56,515 bases of DNA from the NCBI GenBank assembly GCA_044222065.1, contig JBGAOA010000013.1, positions 1-56,515 of the forward strand, given 5' to 3'. The notes below the pieces were generated by a model. That model saw only the letters and a program-made list of their open reading frames with translations. It was not told the origin of the DNA and made no database searches. The stretch comes from Candidatus Eiseniibacteriota bacterium. GTDB taxonomy: Bacteria; Eisenbacteria; RBG-16-71-46. Position 1 is the first letter of the stretch. The number at the start of each line of letters is the position of its first letter. Position numbers and translations under genes: made by a program. Of the stretch, positions 1,777-47,944 are shown one piece after another.

Positions 1777-2615
1777 CTAGTTCATCTCGGCGACGCGTTC
1801 CTTGAGCCGCGGCCACATGCCCCTCGATGCGATCGAGGTCGGCGGCGTCGGGCGTGGCGCGCAGGTAGCCCGTGAGCCGTTCGAGAGCGGCCCCGTAGCG
1901 GTGCAGCCGGAACAACAGCAGGCCCTCATCGCGCGCCTCGAACGCGTCTTCGGGCCGCAGCATGCGCAGCCGTTCCACCGCGGCGAGCGCGCCGGCGTCG
2001 TCGTTCGCGCGCAGGTACGAGACCTTGAGGATTGTTCAGGAGTCTCCGGATCATCTCGCGCTTACCGACCGACGCGATGAGGGAGCGGTCGTAGTCGAGC
2101 TTGCCGTCGGAGATTTCGATCAGCATGCGGCGGCAGTCCTCCTCGTGGACCGAACGGCCTTCCGAGAACGGGTCGAGCAGCAGGTCGCGTTCTTCGCCCG
2201 TGAGCCGCACGAGGAAGTGTCCGGGGAAGCCGACGCCTTCGAGCGGCATGCCGGCGCGCCAGCCGATCTCGAGGAACAGGATCGAGAGCGTGAGCGGCAC
2301 GCCCTCGCGGCGGCGGATCACTTCGTGAAGGAGCGAATTGCTGGGGCTGTAGTAGTCTCGCCCGTCGCCGCGGAATCCGAGTTCGTCGAACAGGTACGAG
2401 CGCAGGCGGGCGAGCTTCTGCAGGTTGTTCCACTCGGGCGCCACGCGCGAGCGGAACTCCTCGGCCCAGCCGTTGAGCCGGCGCCACTCGGCCTCGACAT
2501 CGAGCGAGGGATCGCCTTCGGCGGCGACCAGGAACGCCGTGAGCGCGAGGTCGAACGTTTCCTCGGGTCTCCGGATCATCGCTTCGAAACTGGCTCGCGC
2601 CGATTCGGGATACAC
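1777..2615 (-). pseudogene. SirB1-like transglutaminase-core/TPR protein with two apparent +1 frameshifts
   Basis: LGFRG..DYYSPSNSLLHEVI.RR.G.P and GVGFPGHFL motifs; removing one C near 2030 restores LNNLKVSY and one G near 1808 restores ...LKERVAEMN*; GAGGAG RBS before GTG 2615. Confidence 0.8.
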
Positions 2616-2689
2616 GCTTGAACGCTCCTCCGCGCCGACTTCGCGCTCGCTCGTCCGCACCGCTGCCGCGTCTCGACGCCGGCCGGGCA

Positions 2690-3747
2690 GCGCATCGCCG
2701 CCTGCTCGCCTGGTTCCGCGCGAACGCGCGCGCGATGCCGTGGCGCGAATCCCGGGCGATCCGGCCATGATCCTGGGTGTCGAAGCGATGCTCCAGCAGA
2801 CCTTCAGGGTCAAGACGGCCATCATTACACGCGATTCCTCGAACGCTTCCCGACCGTCGCCGACCTCGCCTCGGCCGACGCCGACGACGTGCTCGAACGG
2901 TGGTCAGGACTCGGGTACTACCGCCGCGCCCGTCACCTGCACGAGGCCGCGCGCGTCGTCGTGCGCGACCACGGCGGGCGCGTGCCCGACGATCCCGAGC
3001 GCTTCGGACGCCTGCCCGGCGTCGGCCGCTGCACGACCGGCGCCGTGCTCTCCATCGGTTTCGGCCGGCCGCTGCCGGTGCTGGATGGAAACGTGGGGCG
3101 GGTGTTCTCGCGCTGGTTCGCGCTCACCGCGAGCCCGCGGGAGCCCGCCGCGGCGAAGCGCCTGTGGGATCTCGCCGCGGCGCACGTTCCGATGCGCGAC
3201 CCCGGCGACTGGAATCAGGCCTTGATGGAGCTCGGCGCCGTCGTCTGCCTGCCGCGCGCGCCGCGCTGCGCGGCCTGCCCGGTGGCGTCCGGCTGCCGTG
3301 CGTTCGCGCTCGGCCGGCCCGAGGACTTCCCGGCGCCGGCGAAACGCGCGCCGACGCGCGCGCGTGCGGCGCGCGATCGCGTGGCTCGAGCGCGGCGGCC
3401 GCGTGCTCGTCGTGCGCCGAACGGGAACGCTGCTCGAAGGGCTGTGGGAGCCGCCGGGCGTCGAGCTCGAGCCGCGCGAGGACGCGAGGACCGCGCTCGT
3501 GCGCGTGCTGCGCGACGCGGGCGCCGGCGCCCTGCGCCTCGAAGACAGCGGCGCGCGCGTGAAGCACGCGATCACGCATCGCGCGATCGAGGTCGAGGTG
3601 TGGCGAGGGCGGCTCGCGCGCCCGTCGCGCCGTTCCGTGGCCGCACGCTGGGTGTCGCTCGAGGCGCCCGAGGTCGGCCTCACGGCGCTCACGCGCAAGG
3701 CGGCGCGCGCGCTCGTGGCGCACGCTTCGCGCTCGCGCCGCGGCTGA
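2690..3747 (+). pseudogene. mutY: A/G-specific adenine glycosylase MutY, frameshifted in this assembly
   Basis: EAMLQQT, WSGLGYYRRAR, HhH LPGVG, DGNVGRV, NQALMELGAVVCxPRxPxCxxCPVxxxC Fe-S motif, C-terminal NUDIX-like GLWEPP and HAITH, spread over three frames; start approximate. Confidence 0.85.
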
Positions 3748-3907
3748 GGCCGGCGCTTCGTCCGGCGTCGCGGCGCGGACGAAGCGCTCGCGCCGTCGGG
3801 CGCGGTCCGGCCCCGTGCGTGCGCTCGCGTTCGGCATTCAGGCGACGCCGCCTGCCGCCGATAACGCCCGGTGTGTTTCCGGCGTTCTCTCGGCCACGGA
3901 GGTCGTC

Positions 3908-4663
3908 ATGCAGCCGCCTCGAGATCTGAATTCGTTCCAGCGCACGGCCGACTTCTCGGTCGTCGCGAAGGGCGTGAAGTCGTCCGGCATCGCCGCGACG
4001 CTGTTCGGCGTGATCGCCCTGTTCCTCGCGCTCCTGCCGCCCATGTCGATCGCGCTTCTCGTCCTCGGCGTCGTGCTCTCGTTCGCGGGCATCTGGAACC
4101 TCACGAAGCCGAACCCGATCGGCATCGTGCTCACCGGCGTGTGCCTCGTGCTCGTCGGCGGCTACAACATCGTCTCGAGCATCCTCGCCGCGGGCTCCGG
4201 CTCGTCCGGCTTCGTCGGCTGGCCCGTGCTCGGCGTGTGGCAGATGGTGTGGGGCTTCCAGTCGTTCGCGCGCTACCGCCGCTTCGCGAATGCGTTCGCG
4301 AACCCGCCGGCGGACCCGGCACGGCGCCAGATGGACCAGATGCTCGACGAACTGCGCAAGGCGAATCCGAAGCAGCACCGCGACGTCGTCGAGTTCACCG
4401 CGAAGGCGTTCACGCCGCAGCACGTGAAGGTGCGCCTCATGGCCGAGGGCGCGCTGTGCCTCGTGAACGCGGGCGACGACGTGCACGTGCTGCCGCGCGA
4501 GCGCTTCGACCTGCAGCTGCTGAAGGACGCGCCGTTCGGAAACGTGAAGGCGCGCGCGAACCTCGGCGGCAACGTGTACGAGGCGACGATGAAGCGCGAG
4601 CACTTCGACCGCTTCTCGGAGTGGAAGAGCGGAGCGGTTTCGCCGCTGCGCCGAGCGGCCTGA
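3908..4663 (+). CDS. Hypothetical membrane protein (about 4 TM helices plus a soluble C-terminal domain)
   Basis: GGAGG RBS before ATG 3908; hydrophobic segments; followed by a terminator hairpin. Confidence 0.7.
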   Translation: MQPPRDLNSFQRTADFSVVAKGVKSSGIAATLFGVIALFLALLPPMSIALLVLGVVLSFAGIWNLTKPNPIGIVLTGVCLVLVGGYNIVSSILAAGSGSSGFVGWPVLGVWQMVWGFQSFARYRRFANAFANPPADPARRQMDQMLDELRKANPKQHRDVVEFTAKAFTPQHVKVRLMAEGALCLVNAGDDVHVLPRERFDLQLLKDAPFGNVKARANLGGNVYEATMKREHFDRFSEWKSGAVSPLRRAA

Positions 4664-4684
4664 CGCCGCCGGGGCCGGAACGAA

Positions 4685-4714
4685 ACGGGGCGCCCCGAAC
4701 GCGGGGCGCCCCGT
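4685..4714. terminator. Hairpin between convergent genes (probable bidirectional terminator)
   Basis: acggggcgccccg-aacg-cggggcgccccgt, perfect 13-bp stem. Confidence 0.7.
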
Positions 4715-4727
4715 CGTCTTTCGGACG

Positions 4728-7700
4728 CTAGGCCTCGACGCCGCCCGCGGGCGCGCCGCCCGGCAGCGCGCCGGGTTCGAACGAGGGCGCGCGGTCGGGG
4801 CGCGGCTCCGACACGCGATGCGGTTCGACCGATTCCTGCGCCGCGTCCGCCGGCTCGCTCGTCCAGCGCTTCACGTACGCGCCGGCCCACGCGCCGAAGT
4901 CGTCGAGGTACGTGTACACGACCGGCACGACGATGAGCGTGAGCAGCGTCGACGTGATGAGACCGCCGATCACCGCGTGCGCCATCGGCGCGCGGAACTC
5001 GGCGCCGGCGCCGAGTGCGAGCGCCGTCGGCAGCATGCCGAAGATCATCGCGAGCGTCGTCATGACGATCGGGCGCAGCCGCAGCTCGCCCGCGTCCACG
5101 AGCGCCGCCTCGCGCGGCTGCCCGCGCTCGCGCGCCTGGTTCGTGAAGTCCACGAGCAGGATCGCGTTCTTCGTCACGAGCCCCATCAGCATGATGATGC
5201 CGATCATGCTCATGATGTTCAGCGTGCCGCGCGTCATCGCGAGCGCGAGCATGACGCCGATCATCGAGAGCGGCAGCGACAGCATGATGGACAGCGGCTT
5301 CAGGAACGAGCCGAACTGGCTCGCGAGGATGATGTAGAGGAACACCACCGCGAGCGACAGCGACTCGGCCATGTAGCCGACCGTCTCGACGAAGTCCGCC
5401 TGCTCGCCGCCGAACTCGAACGAATAGCCCGGCGGCAGCTTCATCGTCGCGAGGCGCGCCTCGATGTCCTTCGTGACGTCGGTGAGCGGCCGGTCCTGGT
5501 AGTTGCCCTCGATCGTCGCGACGCGCTCGAGCTGGCGGCGGTCGATCTGCGCCGGCGCGCCGCCGCGCCGCAGCGTCGCGACCTGCGACAGCGGCACGAC
5601 CACGGCCTTGCCCGTCCGCGGATCCACGTTCGAGGTCGCGACCGGCACGCGCAGCAGGTCCGCCTGCGACGTGCGGAACTCGGGCGCGAGCCGCACGCGC
5701 ACGTCGTACGACAGGCCCGTCGGATCCTCCCAGTCGCCGGCCTTCTCGCCAGCGAGCACGGGACGCAGCGCGCGCCCGACCTGCCCGACCGAGAGTCCGA
5801 CCTGCGCCGCGAGGTCGCGGTTCACGTCCACGATCCACTCGGGCTTGCGGCCCTCGAGCGACGACCGCAGTTCGACGAGCCCCGGCACGCCGTCGAGCTT
5901 CGCGATCGCCTGGTCCGTGAGCTGCTGCAGCGTCGCGATGTCGGGGCCGTTCAGGTTGATCTGGATCGGCGCCGACGAGCCGCCGACCGTGCCGATCTGC
6001 AGGATGCGCGCCTCGGAGCCGCTGAAGCGCACGAGCGTCTTGCGGATGTCGTTCTCGAACTCCTGCTGCGACAGCTTGCGGCGGTTGCGAGGCACCATCT
6101 TGATGAACACCGAGCCGCGGTTCACTTCGTTGTTCTGCGCCGCGCCGCCGAGGCTCAGGTACGTGTAGTCGACCTCCGGCCGCGCATCGAGCCAGCGCGC
6201 GATGCGCAGTCCCTTCTCCTGCGTGTACTCGAGCGACGAGCCGACCGGAGTCTCGAAGCCGACCATCGTCTGCTCGTCGTCGGACCTCGGCATGAACTGG
6301 CCGCCGACGAGCCCGAGCATCGGCATCGCGAGCGCGATCACGAACGTCGCCGTGGCGATGCCGACCGTGAGGAGCCGGTGGCGCAGCGCCCAGCGGATGA
6401 TGCCGCGATAGCGGTGGCTCAGCCCCTCGAAGGCGGCGTTGAAGCGCGCGAGCAGACGGCCGACGGCGCCCTTCTGCACGTGGCCCTCGGCCTGCGGGTC
6501 GTACCAGCGCGACGACAGCATCGGGTCGAGCGTGAACGACACGAACAGCGACACGAGCACCGCGAACGCGACGACGATGCCGAACTGGTAGAAGAACCGG
6601 CCGACGATGCCGCCCATGAACGCGACCGGCACGAACACCGCGATGATCGAGAGCGAGGTCGCGAGCACCGCGAAGCCGATCTCGGCCGTGCCGTGGCGCG
6701 CCGCCGTGAAGTGGTCCTCGCCGCGCTCGACGTGCCGCACGATGTTCTCGCGCACGACGATCGCGTCGTCGATCAGGATGCCGATCACGAGCGACAGCGC
6801 CATGAGCGTCATCATGTTGAGCGTGAATCCGAACGCGTAGAACACGAGGAACGCCGAGATCACCGACACCGGCAGCGTGAGCCCGGTGATCACGGTCGAA
6901 CGCCACGAGTTCAGGAACACGAACACGATCAGGATCGTCAGGATCGCGCCCTCGACGAGCGTCTTCTGCACGTCCTCGACCGAATGACGGATCCACACCG
7001 AGTTGTCCTGGATCACCGACAGCTTCGCGCCGCGCGGCAGCGTGCGGTTCAGCTCGGCGACCTTGCGGTTCACGTCGTCGGCGACGTCCACCGTGTTCGC
7101 GCCCGAGACCTTGCGGATCTCGACCGCGACCGAGCGCTCGCCGTCCACGAACGCGGCGTCGCGCGCTTCCTCCTCGGCGTCCTCGACGCGCGCGACCTGC
7201 CCGAGCCGGATGGACTGGCCGTCGCGCACCGCGACGACGACGTTCGCGAACTGCTTCGGCTCGACGATACGGCCCTTGATGCGCACGAGGTCTTCGGTCG
7301 CACCGCGCTGAATGCGGCCGGCCGGCAAGTCGGAGTTCTCGCGCTCGAGCGCCGCGACGATCTGGTCGGGCGACACGCCGAGCGCCTCCATGCGGTCGGG
7401 CAGCAGGAGCGCCTGGATCTCGCGGCGCAGGCCGCCGACGACGGTGACGCTGCCGACGCCGGACGTGTTCTCGAGCCGGCGGCTGATGTCCTCCTCGGCG
7501 AGCCGCGTGAGATCGCGCAGCGACCAGCCCGGGCCGCGCACCGAGAAGCTCATGATCGGCTCCGACTGCGGATCGAAGCGCGCGATCACGGGCGGGTCGA
7601 TGTCCTTCGGCAGGTCCTGGCGGATGCCGTCCATCTTGGAGCGCACGTCGGCGACGGCGTCCATGATCTTGGTCTTGAGCTGGAACTCGATGAAGACCTG

Positions 7701-7967
7701 CGAGTAGCCCTCGTTCGAGTACGAGAACACGCGCTTCACGCCTTCGACCGAGTTCACCGACTCTTCGACCTTCTTCGTGACTTCGCGCTCGACCGCTTCG
7801 GGCGAAGCGCCGGGGTAGGTCGTCGTGATGCTGACGAACGGCAGGTCCACCTTCGGCCACAGGTCCACCGCGAGCCGCCGGTACGAGAAGATGCCGAGCG
7901 TCACGAGCGCGACGATCATCATCGTCGCGAGCACCGGGCGCCGGATCGAGAGATCGCTCAGGAACAT
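4728..7967 (-). CDS. RND efflux permease (AcrB/AcrD/AcrF family)
   Basis: [47 protein letters not shown] motifs; 1079 aa. Confidence 0.95.
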
Positions 7968-7970
7968 CGT

Positions 7971-9053
7971 TCAGCGCTCCTTCCCGCCGCCGACTTCGAC
8001 GCGCTGGCCTTCGGCGAGCCCTTCGACGGGGCCCGCGACGATCGTGTCGCCCTCGCCGAGGCCGGAACGCACCCCGACGAGGCCGCGCGCTTCGTCGCGC
8101 AGTCCGGCGACGACCGCGCGCTTCACGAGCCGCCCGCCCGCGATCGCCATCGCCCAGGTGGAGGCGCCCTCGCCGTGCAGCGCCGCGATCGGCACGGCGA
8201 GCGAAGCCTGCGCTTCGTTCGTCACGACGTCGCCGTTCGCGAACAGCCCCGAGACGAGCCGGCCGCCGCGGTTCGGGACGCGCACGTACACCTTGACCTG
8301 CCGCGTCGCCGGGTCGGCGGCGGCGTTCACGCGCGCGACCACGCCGTCCACGTCGCCCGGAACGCCCGTGATCGAGAGCCGAACGCCGGCTCCCGGCTTC
8401 ACGGAGGCGAGGTACTCGCTCGGCACCGACGCCTCGAATTCGAGCAGCGAGGTGTTCACGATCGTGAACAGCGGATCGCCGGTGCCCACGCGGTCGCCCG
8501 CCTGGACGCGCCGCGTCGCGACCGCGCCCGCGAACGGCGCGCGCACGGTGGCGTCCGCGAGCAGCCTCGCGGCCGACGCGTTCGCGGCGTCGGCCGCGCG
8601 GTAAGCGGCCTCGGCCGCGTCCACGTCGCGCTGCGACACCGCGCCCTCGGCGAACAGGTTGCGCATGCGGTCGCGGTCCGCCGCCGCGACCTTGAGCTGC
8701 GCCGCGGCGCTCGCGGCCGCGGGCGTCACGCTCGTGAGCCGGAAGCGCGCGAGCGCCTGGCCCTCCGCCACGCGCTGGCCTTCGCGCACGAACACCTCTT
8801 CGACGACGTCGTCGAGCGGCGACGTGAGATTCGCTTCGCGGTCGGCCTCGAGCGTTCCCGACACGGGCACGCCCGCGTGCAGGTCGGCCTTCACGACGGC
8901 CGCGACGTCGCTCGCCGCGAGCAGCATCGGCGCGGCGTTCGTGTCGGGCGTCGCGGCGGACGCGGTCTCGGGCTCGGCGCCGTCGTGCTTCGAGCATCCG
9001 GAGAGCACGAGCACGGCGGCGAGCGCGACGGGTACGGTGATGCGGGCGGTCAT
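7971..9053 (-). CDS. RND efflux periplasmic adaptor (membrane fusion lipoprotein)
   Basis: Lipobox LSGC; VREGQRV, VRAPFAG, GLGEGD motifs; ATG at 9053 overlaps the TolC stop. Confidence 0.9.
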   Translation of the reverse strand: MTARITVPVALAAVLVLSGCSKHDGAEPETASAATPDTNAAPMLLAASDVAAVVKADLHAGVPVSGTLEADREANLTSPLDDVVEEVFVREGQRVAEGQALARFRLTSVTPAAASAAAQLKVAAADRDRMRNLFAEGAVSQRDVDAAEAAYRAADAANASAARLLADATVRAPFAGAVATRRVQAGDRVGTGDPLFTIVNTSLLEFEASVPSEYLASVKPGAGVRLSITGVPGDVDGVVARVNAAADPATRQVKVYVRVPNRGGRLVSGLFANGDVVTNEAQASLAVPIAALHGEGASTWAMAIAGGRLVKRAVVAGLRDEARGLVGVRSGLGEGDTIVAGPVEGLAEGQRVEVGGGKER

Positions 9054-10525
9054 CGGGAAGCCTCCTCGGCGGGAATCGCGGCGGACAGTTGATCGATCGG
9101 GACGGCGCGGGTGACGGGCGTCACGCCGGTCGCGCGCGCGAGTTCCGCCAGCGCGAGCCGGTAGTCCTTCACGGCGCCGATTTCGTTGACCTGGGCGTTC
9201 TGGAGCTGCAGACGGGCGTCGGTGACCTCGAGTTGCGTGGCGAGGCCGTTCGAGAACCGCACGGTCGCGAGGTGGTACGCGCGGGCCGCCCAGCCGGCGG
9301 TGCCGCGGCGCGCGACGAGCGTCGCGAGCGTGCGCCGCACCTCGTCGCGGGCGCGCGCGATCTCGACCTCGACGCCGTCCTGCGTCTGCTCGCGTCCGAT
9401 CTCGGCCTGACGCAGTTCGGCGGTCGCGCGCTGCACGGCGCCGAACGTCCGCGTGCCCTGGAAGATCGGCCACTCGAGCTTCACCGACGCGCTCGCGTCG
9501 CGGCGGAACTCGTCGAGCTCGGGCCGCTCGGTGGCGGGGAAGGCCTGGTGCGAGACCGTGCCCGACAGCGAGATCTGCGGCCAGCGCGCCGCGCGCTCGA
9601 TGCGCAGCAGCTGCTTGTAGCCTTCGACCTGCGCGTCGGCGCGCGCGAGCGAGGCGCGGTGCGCGGCGCCGGTGCTCGCGTCGTCCACGACGGGCACGAG
9701 GCTGTCGGCGAACGCGAGCGGCGAGCGCAGCGCGACCGGACGCTCGAGCGGCACGAGCAGCTGGCGCTTGAGCTCGAGCATCGCGAGGTCGCGCGCGTTG
9801 CGGGCGGCCACGACCGGCGGTTCCTGGTTCGCCGCGTCCACCTGCGCGCGCAGCAGGTCGTACTCGGACCGCGAGCCTTCGCGCTGGTAGAGCTGCACCT
9901 GCTTCAGCTGCGCGCGCGCCTGCGCGAGGCTCGCCTCGGCGATCGCGAGCACGTCGCGCGTGTAGAGCGCTTCGAGGTAGGCGCGCTCGGTCTCGAGCCG
10001 CACACGCGCGCGCGCCTCCTCGAGGTCGGCGTTCGCCGACTTCCGGTACGCCTTCGCCGCCGACAGCGCGGCGCCGACGCGGCCGCCGCTCCACAGCAGC
10101 TGCGACGCCGTCAGCTCCGCAGTCCACGAGTGCACGGCCGCGAACGACGTGTTCTTGAACAGCGACGCGATCTCGCCGGCGACGCCCGTGTCGGGCGTGA
10201 CGCCCTGGAAGATCGAGTCGAACTTGCGGCTGTAGACGAGATTCGCGTTGACCTGCGGCATCGCCGCGGCCATCGCCTCGCGCACGCGGCCGTTCGCGGC
10301 GCGGATCGCCTCGCCGGCGATGCGCGCGTCGGGCCCGTGTTCGAGCGCCCAGCGCACGGCTTCGTCGAGCGTGAGAGGCAGCGTGTCCGCCGGGGAGGCA
10401 GCCGCCGCCGGCTTCGTGGCCGCGCCCGCGATCGGTACGAACCACGAACCGAGCGCGCAGAGGGCGGCGAACAGGAGCGAGGTCGCGAGCAGGAACGTCG
10501 CGATCGGGCGCACGCGGGCGCTCAT
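9050..10525 (-). CDS. TolC-family outer membrane efflux protein
   Basis: Signal peptide; LTLDEAV, PQ repeats, WPIFQG, RFSNGLATQLEV; start at MSARVRP. Confidence 0.9.
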   Translation of the reverse strand: MSARVRPIATFLLATSLLFAALCALGSWFVPIAGAATKPAAAASPADTLPLTLDEAVRWALEHGPDARIAGEAIRAANGRVREAMAAAMPQVNANLVYSRKFDSIFQGVTPDTGVAGEIASLFKNTSFAAVHSWTAELTASQLLWSGGRVGAALSAAKAYRKSANADLEEARARVRLETERAYLEALYTRDVLAIAEASLAQARAQLKQVQLYQREGSRSEYDLLRAQVDAANQEPPVVAARNARDLAMLELKRQLLVPLERPVALRSPLAFADSLVPVVDDASTGAAHRASLARADAQVEGYKQLLRIERAARWPQISLSGTVSHQAFPATERPELDEFRRDASASVKLEWPIFQGTRTFGAVQRATAELRQAEIGREQTQDGVEVEIARARDEVRRTLATLVARRGTAGWAARAYHLATVRFSNGLATQLEVTDARLQLQNAQVNEIGAVKDYRLALAELARATGVTPVTRAVPIDQLSAAIPAEEASR

Positions 10526-40101: not shown

Positions 40102-43014
40102 TCAGCGCACGCGCACCACCGTGCGCGTTCGTTCGATCGCGCCGGCCTGGAGCCGCAGCCAGTACGTGCCCGCGCGCGCCGCGTGCCCCGCGTCGTCGCG
40201 ACCGTCCCAGCTCGAGACGTGCGCACCCGCCGTCGCCGCGCCGCGCTCGAGCGTGCGCACGAGCCGGCCGCCGACGTCGTACACGGCGAGCGACGCCTCG
40301 CCGGCGACGGGCAGCGACCAGCGGATCGAGAGCGTTCCCGCGAACGGATTCGGTCCCGCGGCGAGCGACAGCGCGGCCGGTGTGGCGGTCGGCACGTCGG
40401 TCGTGGACGGCACGGCGAGCAGCCGCAGGTCGTCCACGCCGGCTTCGACGAGCGAGCCCGCGCCGTAGTCCGACGCGCGGAAGCGCAGCTGCAGGTTCGC
40501 CGTCGGCGTCACGACGTCCGACACGAAGAACAGCGCGCGGCGCCATTCGCCCGCGCTCGACGTTTCCTCGAACACCGGCGTCCACGTCGTGCCGCCGTCG
40601 TTCGAGATCGCGACGTGGAACGTGTCACTCGCGGGCGCGCCGCCGAGGTCGTTGCGATACCAGTACCAGTATTCGATCAAGGGATCCGTCATTCCGGTCG
40701 CGTCGAACGACGAGCTGACGAGCGTGACGTGGCCGCCGTCCACGTCGTTCGTTCCGGCGGCCGCGCCCGCCGCGGCGTTGCCCGTGATCCAGCACTGGGC
40801 GCCCGCGGGCGAGTGGTCGTCCTCGGGCTGGCTCGCGTCGGATCCGACGTACGCGCCGACCGGATCGGAGCGCGTCCACGCGCCCGAGGTCGCGTTGTCC
40901 CCGGCGCCGCCCGCGATCCAGCCGGCGGTCGTTTCCATGTCGTTCGAGAACTGCGTCGCGAACGGGCCCGCGAGGAACAGGTGGTTGCCGCGGAACGGCG
41001 CGCCGTAGGGCTCGCCCGCCACGCCGCCGTAGACGTCGGTCGCGGTCAGGTAGTAGCGCACGATGCCGGTGAAGAGCGCGGGGAGGTTCGCCTGGTACTC
41101 GTCGGCGACGCCGGTCGGCGTCATCGCGATGCCCTGGAACGGACCGTTGTCCACCGAGTAGTGCAGCGTGACGCCGTTCGCGGCGAGCGCGCCGAACGGC
41201 CCCGAGTACTGCACGACGGCAGCGATGCGATAGGGGCCGTGATCCGGCGTATCCGACAGCGGGCCGTGCACGATCGTCGTGAAGAACCCGGTGCCGATCC
41301 CGTGGGCGTTGAACGCGGACACGATCTCGGCGAAGTGCGGCGTGCCGTTCGCGAGATTCGCGTCGTCGTCGTCCGCGACGAGCACTTCGACGAAGTACTC
41401 GTGCATCGCGACGCCATTGTCGAAGTCGTCGGGCGTGCCGTAGCGGCTGAAGTGCGCGAGCAGCCGCGTGGGCGCGAGGCCGATCGCCTCGCGCAGGTCC
41501 CACATCGCGCCGCCGACGATGAGGCCCGCGAAGTGCGCCTCGCCGTCGTCGTCGGGCCACGTGTTCGTGTTGTCCGTGTTGCGCAGCACGGTGCCGACGC
41601 CCGTGAAGCCGCGGCCGACGAGCGGCGTGTCGAGCAGCAGGCAGGCGTTGACGTCCGCCGTGCCCTCGTGGAGCGCGCCGTTGACCATGCCGAACGGCTG
41701 GCCGAGCGCGGCGTACAGCTGGTCGTTGATGCCGTGCCCGTACTCGTGGAACACGACGTCGGGCATCGAGGCCGTGTTCGGGCAGCCGCCGCCGGCGAGG
41801 TAGAAGTTGATGCCCGTGCCGTCCCAGAACGCGTTGCACACGTCGTTGATGTTCACCGCGCACGGCATCGAGTAGTCGAGCGCCGTCATCGCGGGATCGA
41901 GCCCCTTGATGTAGTCGTGCACGATGTTCACGCTCCGGAACGCGTCGCGCTCGGCGTCCTGCGAGTTCACGGTCGTCCACGTGAAGTTCGCCACGCCGGG
42001 ATCCGGCGTCACGCTCGACTGCGATGCGTCCGTGCCGTTCTGGCGGTTCACGTTCACGAACGGACCTTCGAGCCGCGCCGTGACGGTGGACGTGACGCCG
42101 GCCGCGAACGAGTAGAAGCCGCTCGCGTCCGTGACGGGGAACGAACCGCCGATCGTGAGCCACTGGTTCTTGAACGGCACGCTCGTGAGCGGGTCGGTCG
42201 GAAGGTCGGCGTGCACCTGGCCCGTGACGGTGCCGGTGATCGCGTGGCGCACGCGGTCGAAGCGCAGACGCACCTCGCCGGTCGCGGCGTCCACGAGCGT
42301 CACCCAGCGCGCGGGCGGATCCTGCGTCACGATCTCGACGGTCGCGACGGGCCGCAGCACGACGCCGTTCTCGGTCCGCACCGGCAGCAGCGCGAGTTCG
42401 CCCGCGCCCGAGGCGTCGTCGGTCGCGGGATCGAAGCGCAGGCCGTTCGTCGCGGCGGCGCGCAGCACGCTCGCCGCGAGCTTCGGCGCGGTGAGCGCCT
42501 CGGCCGGCACGTCGCGCATCGCGTCGGCGCCGAACGCGACGAGCGCGCCGTTCGCGCCGACGCGGAACTCCCAGTCGGCGAACAGCACGGGCAGCCCGTT
42601 CACTCGCTCGCGGAAGCGCACGTACCAGGTCTCCCGCGCGCGCACGGCGGAGACGAGTTCGAGGTCGGGCGCGCCGAACAGGCCGGGCTCGGACGCGACG
42701 AATGCGCGCACGGCGCCCTCGACCGAGGCGGCGTCGTTCGCGGCCCCGGGCAGCGCGAACGAGGGCCCGAACGCGCGGTGCGGCGTGCCGGTGGCACGAT
42801 CCCACATCACGCTCCAGCGCCCGTGGCGTGACTCGAAAGACGCCCAGGCGGCGGCGCGCGCCGCGGGAACGCGCGCGTCCATCGAAGCCGTGTTGAGGCT
42901 CGCGAGCGGGACGGCGCCGGGCGCGACGGCGGCCGGTGTGACGAGCGCGCGGGCGGAAGCGGGCAGCAGCGCGGCGGCCAGGAGCAGGGTGAGCAAGGGG
43001 CGTGTGCGAGGCAT
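40102..43014 (-). CDS. Secreted M4/M36-like zinc metallopeptidase with propeptide and C-terminal FlgD/T9SS-like domain
   Basis: Signal peptide, FTP/PepSY-like region, NAFWDG, DVVFHEYGH, GALHEGTAD, C-terminal PNPF...YDVGGRLVRTL...WDGRDD. Confidence 0.88.
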   Translation of the reverse strand: MPRTRPLLTLLLAAALLPASARALVTPAAVAPGAVPLASLNTASMDARVPAARAAAWASFESRHGRWSVMWDRATGTPHRAFGPSFALPGAANDAASVEGAVRAFVASEPGLFGAPDLELVSAVRARETWYVRFRERVNGLPVLFADWEFRVGANGALVAFGADAMRDVPAEALTAPKLAASVLRAAATNGLRFDPATDDASGAGELALLPVRTENGVVLRPVATVEIVTQDPPARWVTLVDAATGEVRLRFDRVRHAITGTVTGQVHADLPTDPLTSVPFKNQWLTIGGSFPVTDASGFYSFAAGVTSTVTARLEGPFVNVNRQNGTDASQSSVTPDPGVANFTWTTVNSQDAERDAFRSVNIVHDYIKGLDPAMTALDYSMPCAVNINDVCNAFWDGTGINFYLAGGGCPNTASMPDVVFHEYGHGINDQLYAALGQPFGMVNGALHEGTADVNACLLLDTPLVGRGFTGVGTVLRNTDNTNTWPDDDGEAHFAGLIVGGAMWDLREAIGLAPTRLLAHFSRYGTPDDFDNGVAMHEYFVEVLVADDDDANLANGTPHFAEIVSAFNAHGIGTGFFTTIVHGPLSDTPDHGPYRIAAVVQYSGPFGALAANGVTLHYSVDNGPFQGIAMTPTGVADEYQANLPALFTGIVRYYLTATDVYGGVAGEPYGAPFRGNHLFLAGPFATQFSNDMETTAGWIAGGAGDNATSGAWTRSDPVGAYVGSDASQPEDDHSPAGAQCWITGNAAAGAAAGTNDVDGGHVTLVSSSFDATGMTDPLIEYWYWYRNDLGGAPASDTFHVAISNDGGTTWTPVFEETSSAGEWRRALFFVSDVVTPTANLQLRFRASDYGAGSLVEAGVDDLRLLAVPSTTDVPTATPAALSLAAGPNPFAGTLSIRWSLPVAGEASLAVYDVGGRLVRTLERGAATAGAHVSSWDGRDDAGHAARAGTYWLRLQAGAIERTRTVVRVR

Positions 43015-43405: not shown

Positions 43406-44103
43406 ATGTCCGACTCCCGGGACGCGCGCCGCCGTGCCGCACGGCGCACGCCGGGTCGCTCGCTCTGCTTCGCCGCGTTCCTGTCGCTCGTGCTCGCCGC
43501 GGCACCGGCGCGCGCCCGCGCCCAGATCCACCCGCGCCGAGCGAGCGTCAGTTCCTCCAGCTCGCCCACTGGATCTCGGGCTCCTACAGCAGCGCGGCGC
43601 AGGCCGCGCGCGACACGAGCTATCGCGACGTGCAACTGCACGTCACGCCGATCTGGACCGAGCGCGGCGAGGGTTACCGCTGGTACTACCTCGAGCAGGC
43701 GCTCGCGAGCGCCCCGGCGCGCCCGTTCCGCCAGCGCGTGTACCGGATGAGCGACCTCGCCGACGGCACGTTCCTGTGCGTCGTCTACGCGCTGCCGCGC
43801 CCGCAGCGCTTCGCGGGCGAATGGCGCGCCGAGCTGCCGCTCGTCCGGCTCTCGCCCGACTCGCTGCTCGAGCGCGAGGGCTGCGAGCTGATCTTCCGGC
43901 GCTCGGCCGACGGCAGCTTCGCCGGAGCGACGCGCGAACGGCGCTGCCCGAGCGAGCTGCGCGGCGCGAAGTGGACGACGTCCGAGGCGGTCGTCACGCG
44001 CGAGCGGCTGCTCTCGCTCGAGCGCGGCTACGACTCGACCGGCGTGCAGGTGTGGGGCCCGACGAAGGGCGCCTACGAGTTCCTGCGCGTCCGCGACCGC
44101 TGA
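43406..44103 (+). CDS. CpcT/CpeT-family lyase-like secreted protein with one apparent frameshift near 43530
   Basis: GGAGG+ATG 43406 with signal peptide in one frame; GSYSS.AQA, Y.EQA, PFRQRVY, GC.L, ERGYD..G.QVWG in another. Confidence 0.75.
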
Positions 44104-44116
44104 CGGCGGCGCACGC

Positions 44117-45292
44117 TCAGTCCTCGATCGTCGCGAGTCCGGCGAGCGTGACGCGCGCGACCTCGCGCGCGAGACGTTCGCGAGGCACGCCGGACGCGCC
44201 CGCGAGCCGCGCGAGCGGCGTGCGGCGCAGCGCCGCCTCGACGACCGCGATGCTGGTCAGGTCGGCGTCGAGCACGCGGCGTTCGGGTCCGTGCACGAGC
44301 AGCGGCCGCTCGCCGCGCAGCACGCCGACGTGCGCGGGTTCCGCGACGAGTCGGCCGCGGCCCGAGTCGAGGCGCGACTCGACTTCGCGCGTGACGCGCT
44401 CGAAGTCCTCGACGGTCGCGCGCGGCGAGCCGCCGGCCTCGCGCCACAGCACATACGGCGCGATCCACGAGCCCCACTGCTCGGGCTCGCGCTTCACGCG
44501 CGTCTCGAACCACGCCCACAGCGCGCGCGTCGCTGCGGCGAGCCCGTCGGCGTCGTCCCGGTCCGGCGGCGCGATCGGATCGCCGTAGACGATGCCGCGC
44601 TTGCCGAGTCCCGCGCGATAGGCGAGCGCGGGCACGATCGGCACGCGAGCCGCGGCGGCGAACCACGCGGGGCTCGTCCGCACGCGCAGCGGCACGCCGA
44701 GGAAGTCCACATCGGCCGAGTGGTGCTCGCGGTCGCGCGCGCCGCCCGCCACGCTCATGCCGTCGGCGTAGATCGTGACCGCGCCGCCGCCCTTGAGCGC
44801 CGCGAGCGCGCGGCGGACGTCGGCCGCGCTGCGCGCGATCAGCCCTTCGTAGCGGATGCCGCCGCGCGCAGACGTTCGCGTGAAGTCCTCGCCCGAGAGC
44901 CCGGCGAGGTCGTCGAGCATGAGCGCCTTCACGTCCACGCCGAAGTGCGCCGTCTCCCACGGCACGAAGTAGAGCGGGCCGTAGTGCAGCGAGCCGACGA
45001 CGAATCCCTGTTTCGCGTCGCGCAGCCGCTCGACCACGGCGCCGCCCACGACCTCGTCCACGCGCTGGCCGGCGAGCAGGTCGAGCCGGTCGAGAGCGCC
45101 GAGCGCGAAGCTGCGCTGCACGCGCGCGGCGAGCGCGCGGAGCTGGTCGGGCGTCATCGTGCGGCCGAACGCCGACGACACGCTGATCGGCAGCATGCGG
45201 AACTGCTCGGCGTAGGCCGAGCGCTCGATGCCCTTCGAGAACCGCGCGCCGAGCAGGTGGACCGCACTGCGCGCGGCGAGCACGACGTTCAT
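44117..45292 (-). CDS. LpxL/HtrB-like (LPLAT) acyltransferase with putative C-terminal RRE/winged-helix domain
   Basis: SLHYG, TIYADG, VDFLG...PAWFA..ARVPIVP, VKREPEQW.SW; extra about 85-aa tail with a strands-then-helices pattern ending LAGLATIE. Confidence 0.78.
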   Translation of the reverse strand: MNVVLAARSAVHLLGARFSKGIERSAYAEQFRMLPISVSSAFGRTMTPDQLRALAARVQRSFALGALDRLDLLAGQRVDEVVGGAVVERLRDAKQGFVVGSLHYGPLYFVPWETAHFGVDVKALMLDDLAGLSGEDFTRTSARGGIRYEGLIARSAADVRRALAALKGGGAVTIYADGMSVAGGARDREHHSADVDFLGVPLRVRTSPAWFAAAARVPIVPALAYRAGLGKRGIVYGDPIAPPDRDDADGLAAATRALWAWFETRVKREPEQWGSWIAPYVLWREAGGSPRATVEDFERVTREVESRLDSGRGRLVAEPAHVGVLRGERPLLVHGPERRVLDADLTSIAVVEAALRRTPLARLAGASGVPRERLAREVARVTLAGLATIED

Positions 45293-46323
45293 CGCGCGCC
45301 CCGCAGTTCGCGCAGGACCGCGGGGCCGACGACTCCGAGCGCGAGCCACGCGGTGAGCGCGAGGTGGGCGAGTAGCGCGACGGCGTAGATCGCGCTCGCG
45401 CGCCCGGGCGGCGCCTGCGGCGCCGCGTCGCGGCCGCGCAGCCGGCCGAGCCAGCGCTCGCCGAGGCCGCGCACGCCGAGCGCGTCGGCGAGCAGCCAGT
45501 GGCCGTCGAATCCCGGGAGCGGGCTCAGGTTCGAGAACGCGCTCGCCGCGACGAGCAGCGCCGCGCGCATCCACGCGTCGCTGCCGGTCGCGGCGTGCAG
45601 CGCGCCCGCGGCGCCGGCGAGCAGGAGCTGCACGTACACGCCGCCGAGGTCCACCGCGATCCGGCCCCGGCGATCGAGCAGCGCCGAGCGGCGCACGTCC
45701 GCGTAGAGCACCGGCGAGAGCCCGACGAGGCGGAACCCCACGGCGCCCGGCGTCTCGCCGTGGCGGACGAGCGCCGCGGCGTGCCCGAGTTCGTGCGCGA
45801 ACACCGAGACGAGCAGCGCGCCGAGAGCGGGCCACCAGGCGGGCGAGAGCCAGTGCCGCTCGCCGCTCACGAGTCCCGCCGCGCTCGCGAGCGCGGGCGC
45901 GAGACCCGCGAGCGCGAGCACCGCGAGCCCGATCGCGACGCCCGGGGCGTGGAGCGGTGCGAGAGCGCGCGCGAGCGGCAGGACCGCGCGGGGCGGAAGC
46001 AGCTCGAGACGCGCGCCCGCGGGCGGCGGAGCCTCGGACACGCGCACGGGCGGCGTCGCGTCGGGGACGCCGACGAGCCCGATCGGCCACAGCACCTCGC
46101 GCAGCGCGCGCTCGACGGCGGCGCCGTCCACCGGGCGCCCCGAATCGCGCGAGTACGCGAGCGCGATCGCATCCGCGTCGCGCCGGCCGTCCACGAGGGC
46201 GAGCAGCCGCGCGGCTTCCTCGCTGAGGTGGAAGACGCGATCGGGCGGCAGCGTCACGGTGACCTGACGCTCCGCCCGATCTTCGAACCGGATTCGCACG
46301 CCGGTGACGGCGGTCGGAATCAT
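45289..46323 (-). CDS. PqqD/RRE-like domain fused to M50 (site-2 protease) metallopeptidase
   Basis: N-terminal FHLSEEAARLLALVDGRRDADAIA...LWPIGLV; HELGH zinc motif, PVLYADV, GGVYVQ, NLSPLPGFDG; GGAG RBS before ATG 46323. Confidence 0.85.
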   Translation of the reverse strand: MIPTAVTGVRIRFEDRAERQVTVTLPPDRVFHLSEEAARLLALVDGRRDADAIALAYSRDSGRPVDGAAVERALREVLWPIGLVGVPDATPPVRVSEAPPPAGARLELLPPRAVLPLARALAPLHAPGVAIGLAVLALAGLAPALASAAGLVSGERHWLSPAWWPALGALLVSVFAHELGHAAALVRHGETPGAVGFRLVGLSPVLYADVRRSALLDRRGRIAVDLGGVYVQLLLAGAAGALHAATGSDAWMRAALLVAASAFSNLSPLPGFDGHWLLADALGVRGLGERWLGRLRGRDAAPQAPPGRASAIYAVALLAHLALTAWLALGVVGPAVLRELRGAR

Positions 46324-46397
46324 CCGGTGCTCCTGCGGGGTCGCGCGGGGATCCACGGCGAAAGCCGGCGGGCCGGTGCGCGTCCGCGGAAGTGTCG

Positions 46398-46550
46398 TCA
46401 GGCCTTGATGGTCCCGAACGAGTAGTAGATGAGGTAGATGACTTCGCCGAGGAAGCTCGTCGAGTCCACCGACAGCTCGCGGCGCTCGGTCAGCTCGCGG
46501 GCGGAGACCGCCGGGAACAGTTCGACCTCGTCGTGACGCAGGTTCTGCAC
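46398..46550 (-). CDS. Putative RiPP precursor A3: MQNLRHDEVELFPAVSARELTERRELSVDSTSFLGEVIYLIYYSFGTIKA (50 aa)
   Basis: Manual translation; GTG start with AAAGGAG RBS; leader homologous to A1 and A2. Confidence 0.85.
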   Translation of the reverse strand: MQNLRHDEVELFPAVSARELTERRELSVDSTSFLGEVIYLIYYSFGTIKA

Positions 46551-46668
46551 GGGAAGCTCCTTTCGAACTCGCCCGCGGGAACGGGCGTGGGGGGCTCGGT
46601 CACGGGGCGGCCGTGGAATCCCGTGAACGCGGCGGGACGCTAGCAGAAGCGCCGTGCCGCCAGAAAGC

Positions 46669-46696
46669 GAAGGAGGCGGCTTTCGCCGCCTCCTTC
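46669..46696 (-). terminator. Strong hairpin after precursor A2
   Basis: Minus strand gaaggaggcggc-gaaa-gccgcctccttc then gctttct; perfect 12-bp stem. Confidence 0.7.
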
Positions 46697-46719
46697 ACGC
46701 GAAGATTTCGGGAACGAGC

Positions 46720-46854
46720 TCAGTCCCACCAGTAGAAGGACGCGTAGAACAGCTCCTCCAGGAACGACGAGTAGCCATGGAGTTCGCGACGCTCTTCCAT
46801 CTCGTGGACTTCCACCGCGCGGAACAGCTCGACCTGCTCGGTCTGCTTCAGCAT
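46720..46854 (-). CDS. Putative RiPP precursor A2: MLKQTEQVELFRAVEVHEMEERRELHGYSSFLEELFYASFYWWD (44 aa)
   Basis: Manual translation; AAGGAGG RBS; shared leader. Confidence 0.88.
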   Translation of the reverse strand: MLKQTEQVELFRAVEVHEMEERRELHGYSSFLEELFYASFYWWD

Positions 46855-46932
46855 CCCTGGAATCCTCCTTGATTCGCGGGCGAGCGGCCCGCCTGGTTGG
46901 GGAGTGGTGCCTGAAGGGGTCTGGTTCGCCGG

Positions 46933-47076
46933 CTAGGCGCTCGGCTTTCCGAAACCGTAGGAGGCCTTGATCAGCGCGAGGATGAACGAATAGCCGCGCA
47001 GGTCGCGAGCTTCCTCCAGCTCCTTCACATCCACGGCCCGGAACAACTCGATCGACTTCTGATCATCGTGCTGCAT
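46933..47076 (-). CDS. Putative RiPP precursor A1: MQHDDQKSIELFRAVDVKELEEARDLRGYSFILALIKASYGFGKPSA (47 aa)
   Basis: Manual translation; AGGAGG RBS; shared leader. Confidence 0.88.
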   Translation of the reverse strand: MQHDDQKSIELFRAVDVKELEEARDLRGYSFILALIKASYGFGKPSA

Positions 47077-47224
47077 CTCAGCCTCCTGTCGGTCGTGTAA
47101 GCCGGAACGTGAGTGGGCACGTGCGCGAATCGCGCGGCGGACAATTTACAAAAACGCGCGGCGGTGTCCAGCCTGAAACGCTCCCCGGCCCCGGCAGGCC
47201 GTTTGGCTCGTGTATGGTGTCGGC

Positions 47225-47944
47225 ATGGCCACGCCCTGGGATCACCTCCTTGCCGCGGTGCTCGTGGTCGGTCTTCCGTTGCGTGCGGTCTGGCTCTTCC
47301 GGCGGCTCGCGAACTCCCCGTCCCAGGACCGCGCCGCCGTCCGGAAACGCCTCTATCTACAGGCGATGGCCATGCAGTGGACGCTGGTGGCCGGGCTCGC
47401 CGCCCTGTGGCTCGCGACCGGCCGTCCGTGGGGCTCGCTCGGCCTCGTGCCGCGGGCGAACGGGGGGTTCTGGGGCGTCCTCCTCGGCCTGCTGTTCGTG
47501 ACGCCGCTGCTGTTCCGGCGACTCCGGTCGCTCGATGCCGCGACGGTCGCGGCGGCCCGGGCGTCGTTCGCCCCGGTCGAGTCGCTCCTGCCCCGGACCG
47601 TCCCCGAGCGGAACCTGTTCTACGCGCTCTCGGTCACGGCCGGCTGCTGCGAGGAACTGCTCTACCGGGGGTTCCTGATCGACTACTTCGGGCGCTGGAC
47701 GGGAACGCTCCAGGCGATGCTGCTCGTCGCGGTGCTGTTCGGGGTCGGGCACGCCTACCAGGGCCTTTCGGGCGTGCTCAAGACCGGCATCGTCGGCGCG
47801 TTCCTCGGCACCGCCTATCTGCTCACGGGATCGCTGCTCTTGCCCGTGATCGTGCACGCGCTCATGGACGTCTACGCCGGAACGCTCGCGCACCGCGTGC
47901 TCACGTTCGAACCCGCGCCTGCCGCCGTGGAGCGCACCGCGTGA
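47225..47944 (+). CDS. CPBP (CAAX/Abi) intramembrane glutamic endopeptidase
   Basis: EELLYRG, FGVGHAYQG, H.LMD motifs; TM helices; TATGGT hexamer shortly before the ATG (possible leaderless transcript). Confidence 0.9.
   Translation: MATPWDHLLAAVLVVGLPLRAVWLFRRLANSPSQDRAAVRKRLYLQAMAMQWTLVAGLAALWLATGRPWGSLGLVPRANGGFWGVLLGLLFVTPLLFRRLRSLDAATVAAARASFAPVESLLPRTVPERNLFYALSVTAGCCEELLYRGFLIDYFGRWTGTLQAMLLVAVLFGVGHAYQGLSGVLKTGIVGAFLGTAYLLTGSLLLPVIVHALMDVYAGTLAHRVLTFEPAPAAVERTA

Follow-up and report, generated by a model that had tools for sequence, protein, structure and literature searches.

A window of 56,515 nucleotides from Candidatus Eiseniibacteriota (Eisenbacteria; NCBI GenBank assembly GCA_044222065.1, contig JBGAOA010000013.1, positions 1 to 56,515 of the forward strand), which is the whole stretch of DNA analyzed here, carries three short paralogous open reading frames (ORFs), A1, A2, and A3, which encode peptides in which a conserved acidic leader precedes a variable core. 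These genes head an operon, being followed downstream on the same strand by the gene for a metalloprotease and then by that for an acyltransferase (Table 1). The acyltransferase joins a lysophospholipid acyltransferase (LPLAT) domain to a C-terminal domain predicted to have the fold of the recognition element (RRE) known from peptides made by ribosomes and modified after translation (RiPPs), and this pairing of peptides with a lipid-type acyltransferase points to a not yet described family of ribosomal peptides that are probably lipid-decorated.

The host genome is a 4.2-Mb assembly of ~75% GC, and the local GC at the peptide genes dips to about 0.63-0.69, compared with 0.75-0.80 in the flanking genes. 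The ATG of the acyltransferase gene overlaps the stop codon of the protease gene as ATGA, and the promoter-like site upstream of A1 is the only sigma-70-like match within 44000-47400.

Table 1. Coordinates of the features of the peptide module in the window and of related genes at other loci
Locus	Feature	Position	Strand	Basis or remark
Window	CPBP (Rce1-like) intramembrane protease	47210..47944	+	divergent; Pfam Rce1-like E 1.1e-20
Window	Promoter-like site, TGGACA, 16 nt spacer, TAAATT	47143..47170	-	upstream of A1
Window	A1 precursor peptide, 47 aa, ATG	46933..47076	-	ORF, GGAGG 5 nt before ATG
Window	A2 precursor peptide, 44 aa, ATG	46720..46854	-	ORF, GGAGG 9 nt before ATG
Window	Hairpin, perfect 14 bp, GAAA loop	46667..46698	-	22 nt past A2 stop
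Window	A3 precursor peptide, 50 aa, GTG	46398..46550	-	ORF, AGGAG 6 nt before GTG
Window	RRE (PqqD-type)-M50/site-2 metalloprotease	45289..46356	-	likely start ATG 46323, AGGAG 6 nt upstream
Window	LPLAT acyltransferase domain, residues 1-296 of 391 aa	44405..45292	-	Pfam Lip_A_acyltrans
Window	Acyltransferase C-terminal RRE-fold domain, residues 297-391 + stop	44117..44404	-	predicted structure
L024 (G002:C68)	Lone RRE-M50 locus	2700-6230
L025 (G029:C19)	Lone RRE-M50 locus	6370-10040
L067	PLD-like gene	2784-4319
L070	PLD-like gene	354-1673
L072	PLD-like gene	7592-9811
L075	PLD-like gene	32-1402
L076	PLD-like gene	2309-4045

Coding evidence and transcription of A1-A3

The coordinates and letters of the three minus-strand ORFs, of their leader blocks, and of their cores are exactly as an earlier note on this DNA had described them, and the translations confirm that A1-A3 contain no Cys and that the core of A2 contains no Lys. 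In the claimed frame, the GC content at third codon positions (GC3) is 0.83 for A1, 0.87 for A2, and 0.92 for A3, with values of 0.29-0.37 at second positions (GC2), which is the coding signature of a genome of this composition. The leader consensus common to the three peptides is (V/I)ELFxAVxVxE(L/M)xExR(E/D)L. Over this block of 19 codons, the paralogues are identical at 10-12 residues, 5-7 of these being encoded by different codons, and the proportion of synonymous differences (pS, 0.52-0.64) exceeds that of nonsynonymous differences (pN, 0.21-0.36). The earlier note had read protein conservation despite synonymous divergence as a sign of translation, a claim that gains support, with the Shine-Dalgarno (SD) sites and GC3 in agreement.

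Moreover, a profile of the peptide family run at E<=1 against the whole 4.2-Mb genome matches at exactly A1, A2, and A3 (E-values of 4.3e-12, 3e-15, and 4e-11, respectively), a specificity far above chance expectation. A2 is already a called gene in the protein collection (P0170), its relatives being named only 'hypothetical protein', and neither the leaders nor the full peptides A1-A3 have any match in Pfam or, at E<=1, in NCBIfam.

Expression of the peptides, on which the earlier note had made its reading depend, is supported by RNA-library contigs that cover A1-A2 and A3. A 3.15-kb stretch of the window occurs in DNA runs that carry the labels bioreactor, biofilm, activated sludge, sludge, and wastewater and is partly present in six metatranscriptome runs, contigs being mapped from four RNA-library runs. 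In one study, two runs give contigs without mismatch over 46698-47124 and 46698-47126, respectively, a run of a second study gives one over 46859-47124, and a further contig covers A3 (46343-46683). The contigs share an upper end at 47124-47126; relative to the -10 hexamer, this is 17-19 nt downstream, which gives a weak hint of a transcript start. At the opposite side, the contigs break exactly at the hairpin that follows A2, which folds with -40.3 kcal/mol (z -3.25, 0 of 200 shuffles being as good) and is possibly an attenuator or a stabilizer. Also, the mean contig word depth is 14.8 and 15.8 over A1-A2 and about 2-3 over A3 and the enzymes, a drop that would fit attenuation at the hairpin, this being a hint from contig depth, which cannot rank genes. 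Long hairpins recur in the family, since 11 of 33 stretches downstream of peptide genes fold better than 90% of control windows. Perfect hairpins of 10-16 bp, which may act as attenuators and so fix the precursor-to-enzyme ratio, are observed after one peptide gene per locus in the window, L026, L027, L068, L070, L075, L077, and L078, the hairpin-bearing gene often being the last or last but one.

The peptide family and its linkage to the acyltransferase

The aligned peptides of the family (n=33) have 35-53 residues and occur as 1-4 paralogues per locus. Their leader is conserved, with the consensus M(D)R....VELF(R/E/H)A(F/Y/L)xVEE(I/L)xERREL, and is followed by hypervariable cores of about 15-25 residues that fall into several unrelated subfamilies, being GGKFS(S/T)P(Y/F)RGExSSSY, GYGGYGDxYYGC, and CxWC types together with the type of the window, (R/H)GY(S/Y)SFLEEL. 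Ser (22%), Gly (13%), and Tyr (11%) are abundant in the cores, as are aromatic residues. The earlier note, starting from the core of A2, had considered Lys an unlikely shared acceptor, and the family bears this out, with 17 of the 33 cores being without Lys and 16 having it, and every core having at least 4 Ser, Thr, or Tyr residues (median 7). Cys is present in 12 of the 33 cores, and 2 of the 33 peptides end in Thr; the last residues of A1, A2, and A3 are A, D, and A, respectively.

In the protein collection (5.8 billion proteins), 48 clusters of these peptides are found, none with a Pfam domain or an informative name, and a homologue of A2 in another assembly (P0197) is 70% identical. Four orthologue pairs give dN/dS values of 0.13-0.36 (pooled pS 0.246 vs pN 0.070), a small sample drawn from two pairs of genera. 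In three of the pairs, pN is lower than pS in leader and core alike, and in the fourth the leaders are identical. The homologues are under purifying selection, which the reading of the earlier note required.

Co-occurrence was examined from the enzyme side and from the peptide side alike in 206 Eisenbacteria genomes. An LPLAT whose profile match either extends into the C-terminal domain or is interrupted by the end of a contig is present in 21 of them (E<=1.8e-51), and ordinary LPLATs, with E>=9e-32 and matches that stop near position 290, are present in many genomes of the phylum, including some that also have the form with the C-terminal domain. At the 21 loci, a hidden Markov model (HMM) of the leader detects 33 peptides in 18, always directly upstream of the enzyme. 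From the other side, the peptide profile matches 39 places in 20 of the 206 genomes, 19 of which are among the 21 with the LPLAT, and 185 genomes are without peptide and without LPLAT-RRE. The particular cases are as follows: G070 has a diverged peptide upstream of its LPLAT, spotted by eye; G122 has the LPLAT only, at a contig end; G003 has peptides only, at the very end of a contig; and in G115, the LPLAT locus is cut by a contig end, the peptides being on another contig. In all 19 assessable loci, a peptide lies directly upstream of an LPLAT-RRE gene or of a fused RRE-M50-LPLAT-RRE gene. Thus, the proposal of the earlier note that A1-A3 are translated leader-plus-core precursors beside RRE-bearing enzymes and an acyltransferase gains support from homologues, selection, linkage, and RNA-library contigs, and none of the three outcomes that the note had named as refuting it was observed.

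The protease is adjacent or fused in 13 loci, and from this varying position, it follows that the invariant module is composed of the peptide(s) and the LPLAT-RRE. In two of the other loci, those of G002 and G029, a homologous RRE-M50 gene is located elsewhere in the genome beside CPBP and flavin adenine dinucleotide (FAD) oxidoreductase genes, with no peptide or LPLAT. The peptide and LPLAT of G002 lie on another contig (L064), immediately following export genes (HlyD, ABC, and ABC-2), and those of G029 also lie on another contig (L065), adjoining an MBOAT gene. No conserved third partner gene is found in the 13 loci with scanned neighbors, which include an HlyD/ABC exporter in 1, an MBOAT in 1, and PLD-like genes in 5. 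These last genes, of the PLDc_2, cardiolipin-synthase type, are placed within a few kb of the module and may reflect synteny or a lipid-related partner.

In the window, genes for an FAD oxidoreductase and for the CPBP/Rce1-like protease lie upstream of the operon and diverge from it, and a CpeT-family gene (all three by Pfam) converges on it from downstream. In 7 loci, all from the same family of genomes, a CPBP protease is encoded no more than a few kb away from the peptides. As a core component it was rejected, given that it accompanies the RRE-M50 protease even where the peptides are elsewhere (G002 and G029); it is possibly an accessory, for immunity or a second processing step, or mere synteny. 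Further downstream, at 40102-43014 on the minus strand, lies a gene whose large product looks secreted, weakly matches the thermolysin (M4) catalytic domain, and has a C-terminal FlgD Ig-like domain; it is unlinked to the peptide module in other genomes. At the locus L077 (G071:C30, 6915-8046), the LPLAT-RRE gene aligns as three pieces, each in a different frame, with a TGA inside the match, being probably a broken copy or an assembly error, and a leader-type peptide is still present upstream of it.

The protease and the acyltransferase

The 355-aa translation of the protease contains HELGH and NLSPLPGFDG, the second motif of site-2/M50 proteases being NxxPxxxxDG. Its best NCBIfam match is daptide_HExxH (NF041824; E 9.8e-27, 94 bits, compared with a curated cut-off of 300), and the match to Pfam Peptidase_M50 (PF02163) reaches 25.1 bits, just below the cut-off of 27.2. 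For the N-terminal region, the match to the NCBIfam PqqD model (TIGR03859) is weak (E 2.5e-4), and a profile built from ten protease N-termini (95 aa) retrieves the PqqD structures 5sxy, 5vrd, and 3g2b with E-values of 3.4e-8, 3e-7, and 6.9e-4, respectively. Based on these sequence comparisons, the N-terminus is assigned as an RRE of PqqD type, and the protease appears to be built like the daptide leader protease, without being its equivalog.

The acyltransferase (391 aa, 44117-45292) matches Pfam Lip_A_acyltrans (PF03279) with 31.1 bits (E 1.8e-7; cut-off 22.3). A model from an alignment of 26 sequences has a mean predicted local distance difference test (pLDDT) value of 89.7, and a Foldseek search with residues ~30-290 retrieves LpxM (5knk, E 3.1e-12) and PatA (5oce/5f2z, E 2.5e-11 to 7.5e-10), with template modeling (TM) scores of 0.6-0.7 on the target. 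A profile search gives the same two enzymes (PatA, E 9e-6; LpxM, E 2.3e-5). The catalytic motif of LPLAT enzymes is H-x4-(D/E). The residue H103, the counterpart in the alignment of the His in PatA 'PHSGNWD', is conserved in 22 of the 26 family members, and D177, invariant in all 26, could stand in for the missing acidic residue of the motif.

The C-terminal 95 residues, modeled alone, give a pLDDT of 96.7 and form four strands, three helices, and one strand after a linking helix. The top Foldseek match is the leader-bound lasso B1 protein (6jx3_B, E 0.029, probability 1.0), followed by TbiB1, TruD/LynD, and PqqD. In VIA-align, the Z values are 9.2 for MccB (root-mean-square deviation (rmsd) 2.3, 76 aa), 8.9 for TigE, 8.6 for MibB, 8.2 for CteB (rmsd 1.6, 66 aa), 7.9 for TbiB1, 7.1 for PqqD, and 6.8 for the RRE of PbtF. 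The good structural matches are nearly all leader-binding domains of RiPP enzymes and span the whole domain, so that its predicted structure can be likened to lasso B1/TbiB1, the peptide clamp of MccB, LynD/TruD, CteB, and MibB. This suggests that the C-terminal domain has an RRE fold, an assignment that is structural and predicted because the sequence-profile tests are not significant. In a profile search against the Protein Data Bank, the domain finds weak matches to winged helix-turn-helix regulators only (E 0.07-0.3).

A search of 1.84 billion representatives with an HMM of the acyltransferase retrieved 48 proteins at E<=1e-30. All the complete family proteins among them match through the C-terminal end, and a few truncated fragments do not. 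A single-sequence word-index search with the LPLAT returned the protein itself and one weak match only, the index being limited on Ala-rich sequence. The source names are 'hypothetical', 'lysophospholipid acyltransferase family protein', 'lauroyl/myristoyl acyltransferase', and 'putative peptide zinc metalloprotease', and some relatives come from metagenome-assembled genomes of Desulfobacterales and Planctomycetota. The stand-alone form has 360-410 aa, and RRE-M50-LPLAT-RRE fusions of 675-836 aa account for 8 of the 48 best representatives; in G001 and G023, the two enzymes are likewise encoded by one ORF. These Rosetta-stone fusions count in favor of the pathway proposed below. In a quick maximum-likelihood tree of 44 domains with midpoint root, fused and split forms are interleaved, with one fused clade at a support of 96 and the fused P0012 being sister to the stand-alone P0018 at 97. 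Two proteins, P0031 (854 aa) and P0037 (829 aa), contain a complete LPLAT-RRE unit twice in tandem. Their first halves cluster together in the tree, and their second halves do likewise, from which it follows that the duplication is old.

Among metagenome contigs, three of low GC (about 32-33%; L079-L081) carry a distant LPLAT-RRE gene followed directly by an RRE-M50 gene, that is, in reverse gene order, the LPLAT-RRE being preceded by a gene resembling a TonB-dependent receptor. These were the only full family members in the scan of metagenome loci with the low-GC subgroup, and they are not independent because all come from one sample series. At L103, a metagenome locus with a tandem LPLAT, no convincing small ORF was found. 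Two further contigs, L140 (4048-6300) and L149, have an ordinary-looking LPLAT without a match to the C-terminal domain, and the ORF after it weakly matches the protease-type RRE (E 4e-4 and 1e-3).

Proposed pathway and relation to known systems

Taken as a whole, the locus is best described by a RiPP-type pathway in which both enzymes would read the leader, the LPLAT would acylate the core, and the protease would remove the leader, a reading that we consider fairly probable. The precursor would be composed of the leader (V/I)ELFxAxxVxE(L/I)xExRE(L) and the hypervariable core, and the acyltransferase would dock on this leader via its own C-terminal RRE. A fatty acyl group from acyl-ACP (acyl carrier protein) or acyl-CoA (coenzyme A) would then be moved onto the core at the membrane's inner face, the acceptor being most likely the hydroxyl of Ser, Thr, or Tyr, since this is the only class of nucleophile in all cores and is also what LpxM and PatA acylate. 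Finally, the site-2/M50 protease, guided by its N-terminal PqqD-type RRE, would cut off the leader, and a short lipopeptide would be released. A wider proposal is that these loci constitute a RiPP class founded on an LPLAT of the type acting on lipid A and phosphatidylinositol mannosides (PIMs) with its own leader-recognition domain, which would make O-acylated, Ser/Tyr-rich lipopeptides matured by a daptide-like protease, the enzyme pair being repeatedly fused and split and concentrated in Eisenbacteria. This proposal is put forward tentatively, its chances falling somewhat short of even.

Several observations weigh against this pathway. On the side of the acyltransferase, 4 of the 26 family members are without the His at position 103, and position 108 (H+5) is occupied by H, F, R, M, L, or W and never by D/E in the 26 sequences; moreover, the donor, the acceptor, and the product are deduced from family membership. 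For its C-terminal domain, every Foldseek E-value is above 0.001, the VIA-align Z values of 7-9 are middling and lie in the range that the tool deems common, a PqqD match is absent from Pfam searches with this domain of 15 family members, and the hhalign comparison with the RRE of the protease is not significant (E 0.018, probability 2.6%). Regarding gene content, the operon of the window has no exporter, the protease is not found within the stretch examined in 6 of the 19 assessable loci, and a precursor-like small ORF is not found in the three low-GC metagenome loci. Also, the RNA support consists of assembled contigs, which give neither strand nor true ends and could derive from DNA carry-over, and it may be the palindrome itself that interrupts the assembly at the hairpin.

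The order of the two reactions could be the opposite, with the protease cutting first and the LPLAT then acylating the new alpha-amine of the core, as a coupled cleavage and acylation at the membrane, a form of N-acylation that the earlier note had also considered. Fused RRE-M50-LPLAT-RRE enzymes would be the best match for such a scheme. Protease and acyltransferase are fused in many members, the protease coming first; no Ser, Thr, or Tyr is found at a fixed distance from the leader across the family, and the new N-terminus would provide a universal acceptor. However, the RRE of the acyltransferase would be useful only while the leader is attached, 6 of the 19 loci have peptide and LPLAT with no protease adjacent, and LpxM and PatA acylate hydroxyls, so that N-acylation is judged unlikely. 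A different role for the LPLAT-like protein, as a leader-binding scaffold or chaperone or a dead enzyme, with plain proteolysed peptides such as a bacteriocin or pheromone as the products, is less likely still. The members without the His and the missing acidic residue of the catalytic motif would be in accordance with it, and the daptide clusters (10.1101/2023.03.08.531785) have RRE-bearing non-catalytic partners such as DapB, which serves the decarboxylase. Nonetheless, the His is retained in most members and Asp177 in all, the whole LPLAT fold is modeled with high confidence, and the neighborhoods hold no other conserved modifying enzyme that a scaffold could serve.

It could also be that the small proteins regulate an acyltransferase that works on envelope lipids, or are its partners in the membrane, instead of being its substrates. 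Lipid A or PIMs are the usual targets of PF03279 enzymes, and PLD-like lipid genes are near several of the scanned loci; nevertheless, hypervariable cores behind a conserved leader, the 1-4 paralogues, and a PqqD-bearing protease of leader type fit substrates better, and ordinary LPLATs without the C-terminal domain exist in many genomes of the phylum, including some with this form, which makes such a regulatory role very improbable. As to the reading of A1-A3 as chance open frames in GC-rich intergenic DNA, high-GC genomes are indeed rich in spurious ORFs, 25 being listed in 1.5 kb here. Against this are the SD sites, GC3, the 39 homologues in 20 genomes, the 48 clusters, the selection, and the exclusive linkage to the enzymes, and with the genome-wide and 206-genome matches of the peptide profile, this reading is effectively refuted and has a negligible probability.

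In its fold, the LPLAT domain corresponds to the lipid A secondary acyltransferases LpxM/LpxL and to the PIM acyltransferase PatA. The enzyme of the window differs from them in its extra C-terminal RRE-fold domain, in the leader protease fused or adjacent to it, and in the lack of the acidic residue at H+5, the presumed acceptor being a peptide and not a glycolipid. In the full-text literature covered, with subscription journals and supplements outside this coverage, neither an RRE fused to an LPLAT acyltransferase nor an LPLAT-based RiPP was found, and the literature on RiPPs of Eisenbacteria consisted of surveys only.

The closest relation is with the daptides. As reported (10.1101/2023.03.08.531785), their clusters encode several paralogous precursors with conserved leaders (MpaA1-3), an RRE-fused site-2 protease (MpaP/DapP), and DapB (DUF-RRE), an alcohol dehydrogenase, an aminotransferase, and a methyltransferase. 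Compared with that account, both systems have an intramembrane M50 protease that bears an RRE at its N-terminus, several short paralogous precursors per cluster with a conserved acidic leader motif, and a second protein with a C-terminal RRE, being DapB in daptides and the LPLAT here. However, the leader is VELFxA..VEE instead of the ELExMEAP given for daptides, a C-terminal Thr occurs in only two family peptides and in none of A1-A3, and the partner enzyme is an LPLAT and not the daptide tailoring set described there. By Pfam, DapB, alcohol dehydrogenase, aminotransferase, and methyltransferase are all absent from the operon and, for about 10 kb to either side, from the scanned ORFs that have GC3 support. 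The peptides are therefore not daptides on three points, since their leader motif differs, the C-terminal Thr is missing, and none of the four tailoring enzymes is there.

With the selidamides, fatty-acylated RiPPs in which GNAT (GCN5-related N-acetyltransferase) maturases acylate Lys or (hydroxy)ornithine of proteusin/Nif11-type precursors (PMC8784127), the likeness is that ribosomal peptides are expected to bear a fatty acyl group through a dedicated maturase. In contrast to that description, the operon has an LPLAT (PF03279) and no GNAT, Lys is missing from about half of the cores, and none of the NCBIfam models matches the leaders. Ribosomal lipopeptides are rare, and the known ones use GNAT-type acyltransferases. 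Among them, lipolanthines and goadvionins are N-terminally acylated lanthipeptide-type RiPPs made with lanthipeptide/avionin enzymes, an acyl unit derived from a polyketide synthase or fatty acid synthase (PKS/FAS), and a GNAT. They share with the present family the joining of a ribosomal peptide to a lipid, whereas none of their lanthipeptide/avionin enzymes, PKS/FAS, or GNAT is near the window genes (operon and the ORFs scanned over ~10 kb).

If the proposed pathway is true, an RRE-guided LPLAT would be a new route for placing a lipid onto a gene-encoded peptide, and two or three genes would suffice for a compact, programmable lipidation module, for which a wide tolerance of substrates is suggested by the roughly 50 highly dissimilar cores that occur naturally. 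Moreover, it would be the first specialized-metabolite function for Candidatus Eisenbacteria, an uncultured phylum common in activated sludge, and the daptide-type RRE-site-2 protease would have a second pathway in which it serves. Compared with the known systems, the daptide-like protease and the multi-precursor layout are already known, and the class of tailoring enzyme would be new to a RiPP-type pathway.

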